Shown: positions 29,576 to 35,990 of the stretch, piece by piece
Layout: the number at the start of each line of letters is the position of its first letter
Position numbering within the stretch: position 1 is the first letter of the stretch
NCBI GenBank assembly: GCA_963804645.1
Contig: CAWDRG010000011.1
Coordinates: 96,001 to 160,000 of the forward strand
DNA length: 64,000 bases
Reading direction: 5' to 3'
DNA from: an uncultured Bacillota bacterium
GTDB lineage: Bacteria; Sysuimicrobiota; Sysuimicrobiia; Sysuimicrobiales; Segetimicrobiaceae
The notes under the pieces: model-generated
Seen by the model: only the letters and a program-made list of their open reading frames with translations
What the model was told of the DNA's origin: nothing
Databases searched by the model: none
Made by a program: the position numbers and the translations under genes

Positions 29576-30944
29576 GAGCTAAAGTCGAGAGGTGTGGAAA
29601 TTCAAGTGGCGTACCCTTTCCGAGATCCACCCACATCGGAACCTCCCTTGCCGGGGAGGGGAAAGGAGTACGCCAGTGTCAGCATATCAGCCACAACGGG
29701 GGTTGGACAAGGAGGAAGTCCGCTCGACTTTGGACGTGCTCGCGCGTGAAGGCGCGCAGCGCATGCTGATTGGCGCCTTGGAGCAAGAAGTCGAGGAGTT
29801 CCTCGGCCGGGCTCGCTATGAGCGTGGCGGGGCTCGACGGCGTGGGTACCGGAACGGCGCGGGGAAGCCGCGCAAGATCGCGGTCGGCTGCGGGACGCTC
29901 GAGGTCCGCCCACCGCGGGTACGGGACACTGAGGAGGGGTTTCAGTCCCAGCTGCTGCCGCGGTATCAGCGGTCGAGCAATGCGGTCCGGGCGTTGCTGC
30001 CGGAGCTCTACCTGCAAGGCTTGGCCACTGGCGACTTTGAGCCGGCCCTCCGCACCTTGCTCGGGGAGGCCGCGCCCCTGAGTCAGACGTCGATCGTCCG
30101 CTTGAAGGCGAGCTGGCAGGCCGAATACGACACCTGGGCCCACCGCCGGCTGGCCGCCCGCTACGTCTATTGTTGGGCCGACGGCCTCTACTTAAAGGCG
30201 GGGCCCGCCGATGAGAAGACGGCCGTGCTGATCATCATCGGGGTGACGGAAGACGGCCACAAAGAGCTTCTCACGATGATCGAAGGCTACCGTGAATCCC
30301 GTGAGAGCTGGCGGGATGTATTGCGGGACCTGCGCCGGCGTGGCCTCAAAGACGTCCGGGTGTTCACCGGGGACGGCGGTCTCGGGCTCTGGGCCGCGGT
30401 TGGCGAAGTCTATCCAGAGGCGCGGCAGCAGCTGTGCTGGTGCCACAAGATGCTCAACGTGTTGGACAAGCTGCCGCAGCGCCTCCAGCCGGAGGCGCGG
30501 ACCTTGATGCGCGACGTTTACACCGCGCCCACGCGCGAGGAGGCCGACGCCCGGATCAAGAAATTCGCGCTGCGGTTCGAGCGGGACTATCCGCGCGCGG
30601 TGGCATCCCTCACCGATCACCAGGCCGAGTTGCTTACGTACTACGATTTCCCGCGGGAGCACTGGAAGAGTCTCCGGACGTCCAACCCGATCGAATCGGT
30701 CTTTGATCCGGTGCGCCTGCGAACGCGCGCGACACGCCGGATGCGCAGAGCACAAACTGGACTGCATCTGGTCTTCCAATTAATCCGTCGGGCAGAGCAG
30801 CGATGGCGTCGAATCGACGCACCGCACTTGGTCGCCAAGGTGCTTGAGGGTGTTCAGTTCGTCGATGGTGTGGAAGTGCTTGCGTCAGCGAAGAAAAGGA
30901 AGGGCGCCGCTTGATGCAATTTCCACACCTCTTGACTTTAGCTC
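29576..30944 (+). mobile_element. IS256-family insertion sequence
   Basis: 27-bp IRs (29576-29602 / 30918-30944, 26/27 match); 8-bp TSD GAAAGGCC (29568-75, 30945-52). Confidence 0.95.
29676..30914 (+). CDS. IS256 family (mutator-type) transposase, apparently intact
   Basis: YRNG, PRVRD, WADG, GDGGLG, QLCWCH, TSNPIES; GTG after AAGGAG. Confidence 0.93.
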   Translation: MSAYQPQRGLDKEEVRSTLDVLAREGAQRMLIGALEQEVEEFLGRARYERGGARRRGYRNGAGKPRKIAVGCGTLEVRPPRVRDTEEGFQSQLLPRYQRSSNAVRALLPELYLQGLATGDFEPALRTLLGEAAPLSQTSIVRLKASWQAEYDTWAHRRLAARYVYCWADGLYLKAGPADEKTAVLIIIGVTEDGHKELLTMIEGYRESRESWRDVLRDLRRRGLKDVRVFTGDGGLGLWAAVGEVYPEARQQLCWCHKMLNVLDKLPQRLQPEARTLMRDVYTAPTREEADARIKKFALRFERDYPRAVASLTDHQAELLTYYDFPREHWKSLRTSNPIESVFDPVRLRTRATRRMRRAQTGLHLVFQLIRRAEQRWRRIDAPHLVAKVLEGVQFVDGVEVLASAKKRKGAA

Positions 30945-31522: not shown

Positions 31523-32470
31523 TCATGCGAAGGCTTTACGCGGCTCAGTAGGTATGGCGAACAGCAGGTCGCTCATATTCTTCCGTTGATCTGACCAATA
31601 TTCCAGCCGCAGCCGTTCAGTCGCTCCGGCTCGGCGGTGTGCCCGCCGAAGGTCGGCGCCCACGAGACTGCTATACCGGAGCGTGGTCGTGAGGCTCTCG
31701 TGGCCAAGGAGCCGCCGTACCTCGTCGAGACCGGCGCCGCTCCGCAGCCAGCTCGTCGCGGCGAAGTGGCGCAAGGCGTGCGGGTGAGGCGCCTATTCGC
31801 CGGCAGACCGGCCTTGGTGCTCAGCCGATGGAGCACCTGGACGAGGTGACGATACTTCAGCGGCCGGCCCGCGCGGTCGCAGAATAGGAACGCCTCGGAC
31901 GACGGCGCCGGGTGACGTGCGAGCCACGCCTTGAGGGCCCGCGCCGTTGTGGGGCCGACGAACGCCACCCGATCCTTCCGGCCCTTACCGGCACGCACGA
32001 ACAGACCGCGGTCCGCCGGCCGCCAGTCCTCGACCAAGAGGTGCAGGACCTCATTCGCTCGCAGGCCGCTGTCGGCGAGCACGAGTAACAGGGTGCGGTT
32101 GCGCGCACCCTCCAGCGTCTCCGGGCAAACGGCGAGCACGGTCCGCAGCTCGTCTTCGGTGGGAACGTCCGGCAGCGTCTTCGGGGTGCGCATCGTAAAC
32201 CCACGCAGCGGTGTCTCAGCAAGGGCGCCCGTCTCGACACACCAGCGAAAGAACGTCTTGAGCGTGCGATACGCTTGGTGCTGGTGAGACGCGCTGCGCT
32301 GCTGCAGGCCCACGAAGAACGTGCGCAACCCAAGCGGCGTCACCTCGGGGACCTCGGCCGTGAGGCGCCTAACCCACCATCCGTAAATCCGCATCGTCGC
32401 GGCCGTGCAGCCAGCGACACGCTTGGTCACTAGGAACGCCTCCGCAGCGTCCGCGAGCGGGTGAGCATTG
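31523..32470 (-). pseudogene. Tyrosine recombinase/integrase (Xer-like), frameshifted
   Basis: DSGLRANE, GKGRKDR; 1-nt deletion near 31787 before HPHALRH; LGH and TTLRY in the next frame; no clean start for the N-terminal LADAAEAFL segment. Confidence 0.85.
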
Positions 32471-32541
32471 GCTTTTCGGCGGGTTCCAACGAGGTCGAAG
32501 CGTCGGAAACGCTTGCTACACGCCCCGTCCTCCAGCCTGAG

Positions 32542-33352
32542 GTCGGGTAGCAGGGTGGCGCGCCGGTCAGGTTACCGTTAAGGAGCCTGACCACGGTTCC
32601 ACCCCGCCCCCTATCAACCGGATAGCGGGTTTTCCCCAATCCGGCTGGAAGAGCACGCGCTCAGTTGCAGCGTTCCCGATCCTTCCCAGCCTGTACCTGG
32701 GGAGCGATTGGTTTGCTGCAGCCTACAGCGTCGGTCCGGATCTTGGCGGTAGCCCGAGCGCGTTATCAGCACCCGCACCCTCTCCTTCTCCAACGCTGGC
32801 CTGCTCCCAGAGGCCCTTTGCTCCCGCTCCTTGTTATCGGAGCGATCATCGCTCCTACGGCCTCATGCGCCAGACTCTCCCCCACCAGTGAACTTCCCGA
32901 GTGAAGTCGGTTATATCACTGGCCTCACGGGTGAGAGCCCTTCCCCGCTTTGACCATCCACCCTTTGGATGTTGCCGCCACCCCTACGCCGGAGGGCTGG
33001 TTGCGTGCACACGCCCAGCTTCTTCCGCAACCACACTGGCCTTCGTCCCCTATGTAGAAACTTGGCACCCTCATTCCCACTGTGGCGCTGAGCACTCCGT
33101 TACCGGAGCTCTGAGTGGGCCTGAATAACGACGCTGCAGTGTTCACTTCATGTTGCGGCCCCATCCATCGCTCGTCTCCTGGGCCACCGACCTCGGCCTT
33201 TATATCTCTGCCGGGCCGCCGAGACTTGTACGTCCGGGCTTCCGTCTCGCGAGTCACCTCCTTCGAGACGCCGGACAACACTACCGCGGCAAGTTGGGCG
33301 ACTCCGCGGGTCGGACTCTCACCGACTGAGTGTATGGCTTTACGGGCTGCAC
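32542..33352 (-). ncRNA. ORF-less group II intron (~811 nt)
   Basis: 5' GTGCAG; domain V CAGCCGGATTGGGGAAAACCCGCTATCCGGTTG (32615-47) with AGC triad; domain VI with bulged A (32548); 3' end CCCGAC; EBS1 ACATAGG matches the 5' exon. Confidence 0.85.
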
Positions 33353-33416
33353 ACATAGGTAACAGGTTGTACCGGACACATGGGTAACACTTCCTCCCCT
33401 AAAGGGGGGGACGCGG

Positions 33417-34368
33417 ATGCCCTGGAGGGAGTGTTCGGTGATGGACGAACGAATGCAGTTTGTCGCGCGGCGACTCGCCGGTGAGTCGATGGCGGAACTG
33501 TGCCGAGAGTTTGGGATTTCCCGCAAGACCGGTTACAAGCTCTTCGATCGGTATCAGGAATGCGGCATCCACGGGCTCACGGACCGCAGCCGGCGTCCGT
33601 ATCGCTACGCCAACCAACTGCCCGTTCAAGTCGAGAACTACATCCTCACTGTGAAGCGCGAACACGCCAGCTGGGGGGCGCGGAAGATCCGCGAGCGCTT
33701 GACGCGCCGGTTCGCAGGGATTCCCATCCCCGCGAAGAGCACGATCCATGCGGTGCTGGATCGCCACGGCCTGGTGGAGCGTCGGCCTCCCGGCCAACAT
33801 CCGCAGCGACAACGGCGTCCCGTTCGCGTCCGCGCACGCCCTCTTCAACTTGAGCCGACTGGCGGTCTGGTGGGTACGCCTCGGCATTGGCATCGAACGC
33901 ATCCAGCCCGGCCATCCCCAGCAGAACGGCCGTCATGAACGGATGCACCTCACGTTGAAGAAAGAAGCCACCAAGCCCGCCGCGGCCAATCTCCTGCAGC
34001 AGCAGGCCCGGTTTGACAAATTTATCGACACCTTCAACAACGAACGCCCGCACGAAGCCCTGGACATGCAGTGTCCGGCGCAAGTCTACCGCCCTTCCCC
34101 ACGTCCCTACACGGGCTTGCCGGAGATCGATTATCCGCTCCACGACAAGACCGTCGTGGTCACGCAGTGCGGTCGCATCTGTCTAGGCAACCATAAGATC
34201 AACTTCAGCCAAGTCTTCGCGGGACAAGCCGTCGGCATCAAAGAAGTGTATGATGACATCTGGCTGGTCAGCTTTATGGATGATGACTTGGGGTACTTTG
34301 ATCTGGAGACACGAGTGCTCGAACCGCTCGAAAATCCGTTCGGCCCGAAAGTGTTACCCATGTCTTAG
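33417..34368 (+). pseudogene. IS481-family transposase with internal deletion and frameshift
   Basis: MPWRE..HTH..WGARKI..STIHAVL jumps near 33783 to another frame (IRSDNG..PQQNGRHERMH..NNERPH); segment with the first DDE Asp is missing. Confidence 0.88.
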
Positions 34369-34371
34369 GTA

Positions 34372-35863
34372 CAGCGCCACTAAGATAATTTGACATGGAC
34401 GTCGAATAGGCCCCTCGCACGGGTTCGATCGCAGCCATCGTCGCAGCAACAATCGCAGCAGCGAGGTGAGCTTCCATGGCCGCAGCGTCCGCCACGCCGC
34501 CCGCCGTGCCCTCGGTCAATCTGGCTCAAATCATCAAGCTCCTGCACACGCATCTCACGGCAGCCTTATGTAACACGGTGTTCCAGCGGGTCCGGAATCG
34601 GGAACGCCAACGCCGCTGGTCTTTGGCCGCCCTGGCTCAGTTTTGGCTCACCGTGCTCCTCACGGGCCCCCGTTCGCTGACCCAGGCGTTGCGAGAAACG
34701 GGCATCATGTTCCCCCACCTGGGGCCGGCGGCGCGCACCTCTCCGGAGGCCTTTTTCCAACGCGCCGAGCGGCTGCGGCCCGACTTCTTCCGCGTCCTTT
34801 ACGACGAGTATGTCGCGCACCTGGTGCCGGAGGCCCGCACGACCTACGCCGCCGCCGTGGCGGGGGTGCGCGAGCGCTTCTCCGAGGTCTGGATCCTGGA
34901 CGGCACGCGCCTGGATGCGGTGGCCCATCGGCTCAAGCTCACCTGGGATGTCCGCTCGCCGTTGTTGCCGGGGTGCCTGCTGGTGTGCTACGACCTGTTC
35001 CGCGGCTTCCCCCGGCGCCTCTCGTTCTGCGCCGATGCCGGCCGGAGCGAACTGCAACACGCGCTCGAGCAGCTCCCCACCATTCCCCAAGAGACGCTGC
35101 TCATTGCGGATCGACTGTTTGCCTCGGTCAAGCTGGTGGCGGCACTCACGCACGGGAAGGGATGGCTCCTCTGCCGCCGGAATCGTCGGCTCACCCTGCG
35201 CCATCAGCGCTGGCTGCGCCGCGGCCAGTTCAAGGGCGGCACGCTGATGGAGCGCCTCGTCCTCGTCGGGTCGGGGCAAGGCACCCCGCCCCAGCTGATG
35301 CGGCAGATCCGCTATACCCAACATCGACTGACCATTGATCTCTTGACGTCGGTGCTGGACCCTCGGCGCCTCCCCGCAAAAGACGCGCTGGCATGTTACC
35401 GATTGCGCTGGCAAGTGGAACGGCTGTTTTCGGATCTCAAGGGCGTGCTGGATCTCCATCACTTCTACCTCGCCAGCCCGCGCGGGGTGGCCCAACAAGT
35501 CTATGTCGCGGCCATGGTGTATGCCGCGATGCGCGTGGCGCAAGCCCGCATTGCCGGGGAGCATGACCTGACGCCGGAGGAGTTGTCGCCCACCAAGCTC
35601 TTCCCGCGCCTTGCCCGGGCCTCGCTCACCTTCGTGCTCGGGGACCTGCATTTTGAGGCGACGCAACAGGTGAATCCCCGCGTGCGTTTAATCAAGCCGG
35701 ATTGGTCGGAGCTCCCTCCCATGCAGGTCGCGCTGCCGGATCTCCTCGTCGAACCTCGTCGCGGCAAACGCCGCAAGCGTCGGTTCTGCGCGAGCCGGCA
35801 CCGGTGGAAATCGTTCGCGCATGTGCGCGGCGCACGTAAGTTCGAATTATGTTAGCGGCGATG
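34372..35863 (+). mobile_element. IS4-family insertion sequence
   Basis: IRs CAGCGCCACTAAGATAATT / CATCGCCGCTAACATAATT (16/19); 11-bp TSD TGTCTTAGGTA (34361-71, 35864-74). Confidence 0.92.
34476..35855 (+). CDS. IS4 family transposase
   Basis: ILDGT, IADRLF, YRLRWQVERLFSDLK (YREK motif). Confidence 0.92.
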   Translation: MAAASATPPAVPSVNLAQIIKLLHTHLTAALCNTVFQRVRNRERQRRWSLAALAQFWLTVLLTGPRSLTQALRETGIMFPHLGPAARTSPEAFFQRAERLRPDFFRVLYDEYVAHLVPEARTTYAAAVAGVRERFSEVWILDGTRLDAVAHRLKLTWDVRSPLLPGCLLVCYDLFRGFPRRLSFCADAGRSELQHALEQLPTIPQETLLIADRLFASVKLVAALTHGKGWLLCRRNRRLTLRHQRWLRRGQFKGGTLMERLVLVGSGQGTPPQLMRQIRYTQHRLTIDLLTSVLDPRRLPAKDALACYRLRWQVERLFSDLKGVLDLHHFYLASPRGVAQQVYVAAMVYAAMRVAQARIAGEHDLTPEELSPTKLFPRLARASLTFVLGDLHFEATQQVNPRVRLIKPDWSELPPMQVALPDLLVEPRRGKRRKRRFCASRHRWKSFAHVRGARKFELC

Positions 35864-35914
35864 TGTCTTAGGTACGAACTGTCACCTATGTCTCCGGGTT
35901 GGACCCGTAAGGAC

Positions 35915-35990
35915 TGGCGCGCCCGGAAGGATTTGAACCTCCGACCCGCTGCTTCGAAGGCAGCTGCTCTATCCCCTGAGCTACGGGCGC
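35915..35990 (-). tRNA. tRNA-Arg, anticodon TCG
   Basis: 76-nt cloverleaf GCGCCCG..GCTGC-CTTCGAA-GCAGC..GGAGG-TTCAAAT-CCTTC-CGGGCGC-G-CCA. Confidence 0.95.

Follow-up and report, generated by a model that had tools for sequence, protein, structure and literature searches.

A group II intron without an open reading frame in the left inverted repeat of an IS481-family element from an uncultured Bacillota bacterium

Described systems and the present intron

Bacterial group II introns that lack an open reading frame (ORF) and group II introns that settle in the inverted repeats of insertion sequences (ISs) are both known habits, and the intron described here combines the two. It lies in a 64,000-nt stretch of DNA (the window) from an uncultured Bacillota bacterium (GenBank assembly GCA_963804645.1, contig CAWDRG010000011.1, positions 96,001–160,000 of the forward strand), the genome set of which comprises 22 contigs and 5.3 Mb, and it interrupts the left inverted repeat of an IS481-family element. 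Very likely it is a non-autonomous intron of subgroup IIB that spreads by retrohoming to a site 13 nt inside this repeat, and, judged from sequence comparisons, it is real and apparently mobile, a "parasite of a parasite". An ORF-less intron in an IS481 repeat was not found in the literature, in which searching for that specific case was limited.

RmInt2 of Sinorhizobium meliloti GR4 is a class D, IIB intron with an endonuclease-less intron-encoded protein (IEP) (PMC4615759). Like the present intron, it has all its copies in IS inverted repeats (those of ISRm17) and reads its target through the exon-binding sites EBS1, EBS2 and EBS3, four paired EBS2 positions being sufficient. Its retrohoming favours the lagging-strand template, and its head-to-tail copies and tandems have counterparts in the present family. 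However, RmInt2 encodes its own reverse transcriptase (RT)/maturase, whereas the present intron encodes none, and the two host ISs belong to different families. Both ISRm17 repeats are presented as potential targets, in contrast to the occupancy of left repeats only (5/5 vs. 0/5) found here.

Thermosynechococcus elongatus has 17 ORF-less TeI3 introns, to which the IEPs of related introns give mobility in trans (Mohr, Ghanem and Lambowitz, 2010; PMC2882425). These introns share with the present family the lack of an ORF, good pairings between EBSs and intron-binding sites (IBSs), and a target specificity that has diverged into families. One of these, F4, occupies a conserved site of ISEL1 (IS200 family) and another occurs inside introns as twintrons, both of which are habits of the present family as well. 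TeI3 introns keep ORF remnants and have close RT-bearing siblings (TeI4), whereas in the present intron no remnant is detectable and the likeness to RT-bearing introns is at profile level only. Target and host also differ, since the present intron uses the terminal inverted repeat of an IS481-family element in soil or peat bacteria, and TeI3 resides in a thermophile.

HYER ribozymes (PMC11754743) are likewise compact ORF-less group II ribozymes with a short DNA guide, but they belong to class IIC, measure 0.4–0.6 kb and recognise about 7 bp with no EBS2, whereas the present intron is 811 nt long, matches the group-II-D1D4-4 model and has EBS1, EBS2 and EBS3. Identity with HYER or class IIC was rejected, because EBS2 covaries, domain I is about 400 nt long and no terminator hairpins precede the sites. 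A self-splicing ribozyme is joined to an IS in IStrons too (PMC4227781). That ribozyme is a group I intron combined with IS200/IS605 and is part of the transposing unit, whereas the present group II intron invades the IS end separately.

Ribozyme structure and guide loops

The minus strand of the window holds a complete ribozyme of the group II, IIB-like type, with a 3' end that reads CTACCCGAC (Table 1). An earlier note on this stretch had proposed an 811-nt minus-strand group II intron without an RT ORF, and its coordinates for the intron, IBS1, EBS1, domain V and the repeat site, as well as its placing of the bulged A of domain VI, were all borne out on re-inspection. The intron itself was confirmed by a covariance-model match, a covarying fold and an ORF search. 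The Rfam model group-II-D1D4-4 (RF02003) matched at 33148–33328 on the minus strand with 58.4 bits (gathering score 49, E 2.9e-10), over model positions 1–138 of 138 and inside domain I. From an alignment of 18 sequences (A2; the window intron and its relatives), which is the basis of the fold and covariation counts, RNAalifold derived a six-domain consensus fold of 194 pairs, 101 of them with compensatory changes on both sides, and this fold delimited domains I, II, III, V and VI. An RT ORF was absent, the longest ORF overlapping the intron being 143 aa, and a blastx comparison of the intron with six of the RT proteins that the genome encodes gave a best E value of only 1.6. Among the matches listed for blastx of 21 family members, no RT remnant was significant (best E 0.073). 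At the head of domain IV, a small hairpin precedes GGAGAAGGAGAGGGUG, a sequence similar to the RT-bearing relative's ribosome-binding site and start region, and the arrangement may be likened to an IEP-binding DIVa.

The intron termini read GUGCA...AC, with A in the fifth position and not the G of the GUGYG...AY pattern. The gamma-gamma' pair, formed by the base in the junction of domains II and III (J2/3) and the last intron base, is Watson-Crick in 17 of the 18 sequences and holds in 18/18 with G-U counted. The first base (G/U) tracks the penultimate base (A/G) in 17/18, the exception being L174, which stands in a tandem context.

The 7-nt complementarity between EBS1 and IBS1 is beyond chance. 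Across the alignment, 92.1% of the cells formed by the EBS1 columns and the last seven exon bases were paired, against 46.5% in shuffled controls (0/500 reached the observed value) and 35–55% when the register was slid by 1–3 columns, and all seven pairs vary on both sides. The earlier note had read ACATAGG as EBS1 and CCTATGT as its target, and had asked that the former lie in an EBS1 loop. The motif occupies a 9-nt hairpin loop of domain I that covaries with the exon, so that this reading of the target stands. Exceptions were L160, the loop of which fits another site, and L174 and L175, which mismatch their own upstream sequence in tandem or odd contexts. For EBS2 and IBS2, the cognate helix averaged 5.36 bp vs. 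4.09 bp for non-cognate combinations over 25 distinct intron/site pairs, a value that 0/2000 permutations reached. The EBS3 column lies in an internal loop 3' of the EBS1 arm, and in 15/18 sequences its base forms a Watson-Crick pair with exon position +1 (types G-C, C-G and U-A), IBS3 being the C at 32541. The intron boundaries and the guide reading hold because EBS1, EBS2, EBS3, gamma-gamma' and the first and penultimate nucleotides covary. A 5' boundary at ACCTAT^GTGTG (^ marks the junction), which would have given the canonical GUGUG, was rejected, since three diverged relatives start with (G/T)TGCAG and their EBS1 loops pair with precisely the seven bases before this start.

In the proposed mechanism, the target would be read by pairing of EBS1 (ACAUAGG) with CCTATGT, of EBS2 (CAGG) with CCTG and of EBS3 (G) with the C at +1, and reverse transcription and help with splicing would be supplied in trans by the RT/maturase that a different group II intron of the genome encodes. 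Mobilisation in trans is suggested by the near-identical copies at cognate sites and by the empty sites of relatives. Priming would probably occur on nascent DNA at replication forks, as is proposed because the candidate RTs have no endonuclease; this would limit insertion to the lagging-strand template. In this account, splicing in vivo, the choice of RT, dependence on the fork and any consequence for the IS are inferences.

Table 1. Features of the intron and its host element, in window coordinates
Feature	Position	Strand	Basis
ORF-less group II (IIB-like) intron, 5' GUGCAG ... CCCGAC 3'	32542..33352	-	Rfam match, structure, genome copies
Domain I	32944..33346	-	RNAalifold; ~400 nt
EBS2 (CAGG)	33120..33123	-	family-wide pairing test
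EBS1 (ACATAGG), 9-nt loop of hairpin 33045-33061 in domain I	33049..33055	-	fold and covariation
EBS3 candidate (G), pairs with first 3'-exon base	32984	-	alignment column covariation
Domain II	32869..32943	-	RNAalifold
gamma (G), partner of last intron base gamma'	32868	-	covariation
Domain III	32810..32864	-	RNAalifold
Domain IV region, two hairpins, no ORF	32663..32796	-	RNAalifold and ORF search
Domain V, AGC triad 32644-32646, 2-nt bulge 32624-32625	32615..32647	-	RNAalifold
Extended domain VI, with the bulged branch-point A at position -7 (32548)	32549..32608	-	RNAalifold
IBS1 (CCTATGT), last 7 nt of 5' exon, within IS481 left inverted repeat	33353..33359	-	pairs with EBS1
IBS2 candidate (CCTG), exon -14 to -11	33363..33366	-	pairs with EBS2
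3' exon, outermost 13 nt of IS481 left inverted repeat (CTCAGGCTGGAGG)	32529..32541	-	left/right end comparison
3-bp target duplication CGT	32526-32528 and 35906-35908		end comparison
IS481-family element body, transposase gene broken by 222-bp internal deletion relative to intact copy	33353..34372	+	
IS4-like element, 459-aa DDE_Tnp_1 transposase, inside IS481 right inverted repeat	34373..35865	+	
Outer part of IS481 right inverted repeat	35866..35905	+	

Insertion sites, movement and helper functions

The genome contains five copies of the intron that are 99.6–100% identical, namely the window copy and those at C11:11634, C15:243070, C19:15331 and C19:55960. All five lie at ...ACCTATGT^intron^CTCAGG, with the longer upstream context ...GTTACCTATGT, so that the search for further copies at CCTATGT^CTC in IS481 ends that the earlier note had called for turned up every genomic copy there. 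Since the repeat extends 13 nt past the intron, insertion took place 13 nt inside the IS tip and not at its edge. The IS481 terminal-repeat target of the earlier note was therefore right as to the element and is refined as to the point of insertion, the CTC after the intron belonging to the repeat. The core of its proposal, a non-autonomous ribozyme that homes into an IS481 repeat, is supported by the EBS1 match, the five concordant copies and the presence of RT genes in trans.

Two further family members occur in the same genome, one a paralog of 75% identity on contig C4, the other a fragment of 240 nt, and the sister genome G006 holds a 73% relative. The site of the paralog (...GACCGACTCTAA^GTGCAG) is unrelated to the IS481 site, as is that of the relative in G006 (...GGCTTTCTGC^TTGCAG), and their EBS1 loops, TTAGAGT and GCAGAAA, respectively, are exact complements of their own exons. 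The fragment (L007, C4:142244–142483) belongs to a third member, 83% identical, and covers domain I only; it has its own EBS1 loop (TTTACGGAG) and lies about 150 nt past a tRNA-like sequence. Since filled left repeats, empty right repeats with an identical IBS1, and a paralog directed to a different IS end coexist in one genome, the locus is a clean natural case, with internal controls, of how a mobile intron that lacks a protein selects its target by RNA guidance. The intron splits the terminal repeat at every left end of the IS481 element, which may limit the spread of this element in the host genome.

Several results weigh against a working, retrohoming intron, and they concern its detection, its guide helix, its expression, its carriage by the IS, the empty right repeats and the likeness to RT-bearing introns. 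The earlier note had looked to covariance models and counted a missing domain V–VI match against its reading. The group-II-D1D4-4 model matched, but the domain V–VI model RF00029 gave no match to the intron at a permissive threshold of E≤10. We read this miss as low sensitivity of the model for a domain VI such as the one present here, which at about 60 nt is much longer than usual, because two RT-bearing introns of this genome also scored barely above the model's threshold of 40 (41.6 and 48.6 bits). The miss is also outweighed by the covariation of domains V and VI across the 18 relatives. The EBS2/IBS2 helix of the window copy consists of 4 bp only (CAGG/CCTG).

As to expression, metatranscriptome contigs from three runs of two studies cover 560–765 nt of the intron at 98–100% identity, and two of these contigs reach across the 5' junction, with 13 and 46 nt of exon, which is a weak hint that the intron is expressed. 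The spliced-exon joint was not seen in the RNA-library contigs, and these may represent DNA carry-over. The 3' part of the intron (32542–32633) was uncovered in the three RNA runs, although contigs cannot show absence. A scan of 32300–34000 for a sigma-70-like promoter upstream on the intron strand returned 0 sites; such a scan is uninformative for a G+C-rich host, and other promoter types lie outside its scope. The missing joint would fit copies that are inactive relics, homogenised by gene conversion and no longer splicing or moving, as would the state of the host elements, four of five of which are otherwise broken by deletion, nested insertions or truncation. We regard this as very improbable, since the pairing elements and catalytic motifs are intact in all five copies and their 99.6–100% identity across three contigs, in one case beside only 35 nt of IS, better fits recent insertion.

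A further possibility is that the intron entered one IS copy once and multiplied only as a passenger, through transposition of the IS as a unit. The IS copies of the window, C19:15331 and C19:55960 are 98.8–100% identical to one another (window 100%, the two C19 copies 98.8–99.8%), so that co-transposition is possible for these three introns. Each of the three elements is flanked tip to tip by a 3-bp duplication (CGT, TGA and ATC, respectively), and the 13-nt tip beyond the intron is retained in all copies. Gene conversion could also keep copies alike. The remaining two copies, however, sit in another IS subfamily (ends 91–94%, body 91–92%), yet their introns differ from the window copy at only 1–2 of 811 positions. 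At C11:11634 there are 2 differences (99.75% identity) beside an IS end that is only 94% identical over 52 nt and a remaining IS that is 91–92% identical, and at C15:243070 there is 1 difference (99.88%) beside the only 35 nt of IS end left, which are 91% identical.

The same IS also has uninterrupted left ends in related genomes. Of the 94 genomes of the class, 20 carried the element (E≤1e-10) and 3 carried the intron family, one of the three as a 53-nt fragment only; in five related genomes without the intron, 6/6 left ends are uninterrupted (...CCTGAG^ACATAGGTAACAGG...), and three of the six have perfect IBS1 and IBS2. In addition, the guide loops of the family follow each member's own site, as retrohoming predicts, and, from general knowledge of DDE transposases, an 811-bp insert between tip and repeat should hinder the transposase. 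Carriage by the IS alone is therefore improbable. Because near-identical introns occur in divergent IS ends and left ends are empty in relatives, we conclude from these comparisons that the intron moved independently of the IS and invades the left-repeat site by itself, with gene conversion as a minor alternative. In one DNA contig from a peat run, ...CTCCAGCCTGAA abuts the IS left end, which may represent an empty site; being single and of low depth, it is too thin as evidence.

Occupancy was one-sided, with 5/5 left repeats filled and 0/5 right repeats filled in the genome; the emptiness of the right repeats had not been foreseen in the earlier note. The right repeat (GTCACCTATGT^CTCCGG) has the same IBS1 and the same bases at +1 to +3 as the left, and with ACTG in place of CCTG it is short of a single EBS2 pair, so that pairing alone explains the asymmetry poorly. 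The sense strand is the G-rich strand of the contig in 18/18 introns, i.e., in 6/6 ORF-less copies and 12/12 RT-bearing introns, strand composition being taken from flanks of 20–100 kb on each side for the former and 50 kb for the latter. The right-repeat site lies on the opposite strand in 5/5 elements. RmInt1 and RmInt2, which are endonuclease-less, insert mainly into the lagging-strand template (PMC4615759; PMC8914252). In our analysis, strand is a stronger candidate than the EBS2 mismatch for keeping the right ends empty; the bias of the 18 introns fits retrohoming that depends on the fork, and fork priming may explain the 5/5 and 0/5 occupancy. Because the IS is itself always oriented the same way beside tRNA genes, the strand bias of the five copies is confounded and gives no independent evidence, unlike that of the C4 paralog and of the RT-bearing introns.

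The earlier note had held that a maturase/RT is needed in trans. RT genes are present, with 12 RVT_1 and 11 GIIM matches in open frames of 406–465 aa, although a close RT-bearing sibling did not turn up. A profile built from the ORF-less family matched three introns with a 460-aa RT over domains I–III (E 4e-18 to 2e-17), and the match stops where their ORF starts. These introns have the same extended domain VI with the GGCGCGCC motif, and their RT carries RVT_1 and GIIM without an endonuclease domain. The endonuclease-less 460-aa RT of these structurally closest introns is our best guess at the helper. It is a guess because the nearest RT-bearing ribozyme is alike at profile level only and the intron holds no RT remnant; blastn of the intron against the RT-bearing introns gave trivial matches only. 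The sister genome G006, host of the 73% relative, also carries group II RTs, the best of which is 48% identical.

Alternatively, the intron might act without protein, cutting or reverse-splicing into DNA alone in the manner of IIC HYER or of a P.li.LSU.I2 derivative. The lack of a close RT-bearing sibling and of an ORF remnant would suit this, as would the count of ORFs, which is 0 in the 25 of 36 metagenome loci that have a full-length, uninterrupted copy. Such independence is scarcely credible, since fixation of an insertion in DNA still requires reverse transcription and both genomes with intact members carry several group II RTs. Moreover, the intron is not IIC, having EBS2 and a long domain I, and one of the metagenome members has as its host an RT-bearing intron whose domain III is very similar. 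In this case (L177:1–1200), the ORF-less member lies in domain II of the RT-bearing metagenome intron, whose domain III (GGGAGCAAAGGAGCCC) is nearly the same as that of the family; the RT ORF starts about 150 nt downstream, in an open frame that begins 124 nt past the intron. At L188, a truncated copy that ends at the start of domain IV on a 202-kb contig, no RT ORF of at least 400 aa was found downstream.

The intron family and the surroundings of the locus

When metagenomes were scanned with a 21-nt pattern from domain III, 36 distinct loci (37 rows) on soil or peat contigs came up. All 36 hold relatives of the intron, 25 of them with at least one uninterrupted full-length copy of 760–815 nt, and the remaining loci are cut by contig ends or nested. 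A scan of the genome-contig collection with a 15-nt pattern gave 119 stretches, 0 of which matched the family profile; this pattern was too short and its hits were attributed to chance.

The family departs from published norms in two places of the catalytic core. The domain V triad is AAC, not AGC, in 11 of the 18 aligned members (alignment columns 757–759 and 784–788); facing the triad, AAC-type members have A (L184 has C), and in most of them the 3' strand is longer by one G. Seven of the 18 (L031, L157, L160, L164, L170, L173 and L190) start with U (UUGCAG), and all seven have a penultimate G (..CCCGGY), the first and penultimate positions being columns 13 and 863. The first base also tracks the bulge base of domain V (column 778, C or A) in 17/18 members, for which shared descent is an equally possible explanation. 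These variants are noteworthy because a review gives an AGC/CGC triad and GUGYG...AY ends as the norms (PMC4424553). AAC-type members look mobile because they have perfect 7-bp EBS1/IBS1 pairings and one is found in the domain V loop of two host introns, and some members seem to stay mobile with a non-canonical core (AAC triad, U...G-Y ends). If the AAC and U...G-Y forms are catalytically competent, they would be natural exceptions at two of the most conserved positions of group II and spliceosomal catalysis. The family further supplies natural covariation data for the first and penultimate nucleotides, gamma-gamma' and EBS3, in addition to the domain V triad variant.

Insertion into IS termini recurs in the family, because the C4 paralog and a metagenome lineage both occupy the end of another element. 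The paralog (L006, C4:158167–158962) lies about 7 nt from the end of a different repeated element, with an HTH_33 ORF upstream, and an unoccupied homologous end of that element is present at C15:464391–464510. The metagenome lineage (L157, L158, L173 and L187) occupies the other strand of the corresponding end of that element, at a distance of about 32 nt from its tip. Speculatively, by inserting so close to IS tips the introns might take advantage of DNA ends, or of replication that the transposase starts there.

Nested and tandem copies were observed at L156, L159, L161, L171, L182, L186, L189, L169, L174 and L178. One lineage is nested in sibling introns, at the GAAA loop of their domain V (...CCGGGGAAAT^GTGCGG), and another in domain III at ...GGTGATAAC^, and head-to-tail pairs were also seen.

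Tentatively, and as something we think rather unlikely, the family could be an old, self-perpetuating clade of ORF-less introns, comparable to short interspersed elements (SINE-like), as opposed to a short-lived deletion derivative. The reading is prompted by the lack of any RT remnant, by differences of up to about 27% between members, by occurrence in at least two genomes and 36 contigs, and by the count of ORFs (0/25). Such a clade may have specialised in transposon termini (the IS481 repeat and a second IS end, on both strands) and in sibling introns. A review describes bacterial ORF-less group II introns as rare and short-lived (PMC4424553); the diversified family suggests that they are commoner in soil bacteria than that account holds.

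The host element is represented elsewhere in the genome by an intact copy with a 393-aa transposase that has rve, rve_3, HTH_32 and LZ_Tnp_IS481 domains. Its inverted repeats are about 55 bp long, and 3-bp target duplications flank 3/3 complete elements, including that of the window. The left tip reads CCTCCAGCCTGAG and the right end ...CTCCGGGTTGGACC. In the window copy, the 222 bp missing relative to the C19 copies lie near 33776, and the transposase frame is split into ORFs at 33417–33938 and 33748–34368. The right inverted repeat carries ACCTATGTCTC at 35884–35894, and the unoccupied site ACCTATGT^CTCCGG spans 35884–35897. The IS4-like insertion in this repeat is bounded by a 10-bp duplication (TCTTAGGTAC) and has the terminal repeats CGCCACTAAG.../...CTTAGCGGCG; further IS4-like copies or pieces occur on four contigs (C9, C13, C19 and C22). 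The region around the left tip is a pile-up of mobile elements, with an IS256-family (Transposase_mut) gene at 29592–30914 and a tyrosine-recombinase (Phage_integrase) gene at 31573–32430 just past the tip.

The right end of the IS481 element lies 9–14 nt past the 3' end of a tRNA-Arg gene at 6/13 right ends (the window and 5/12 loci), always in the same orientation and with the anticodons TCG, TCT and CCG (window 35866–35990, L191, L193, L194, L216 and L217). Five more right ends are preceded by tRNA-like ...CCA 3' halves that were not called by ARAGORN, and the pattern suggests that this IS481-family element targets the flanks of tRNA genes.

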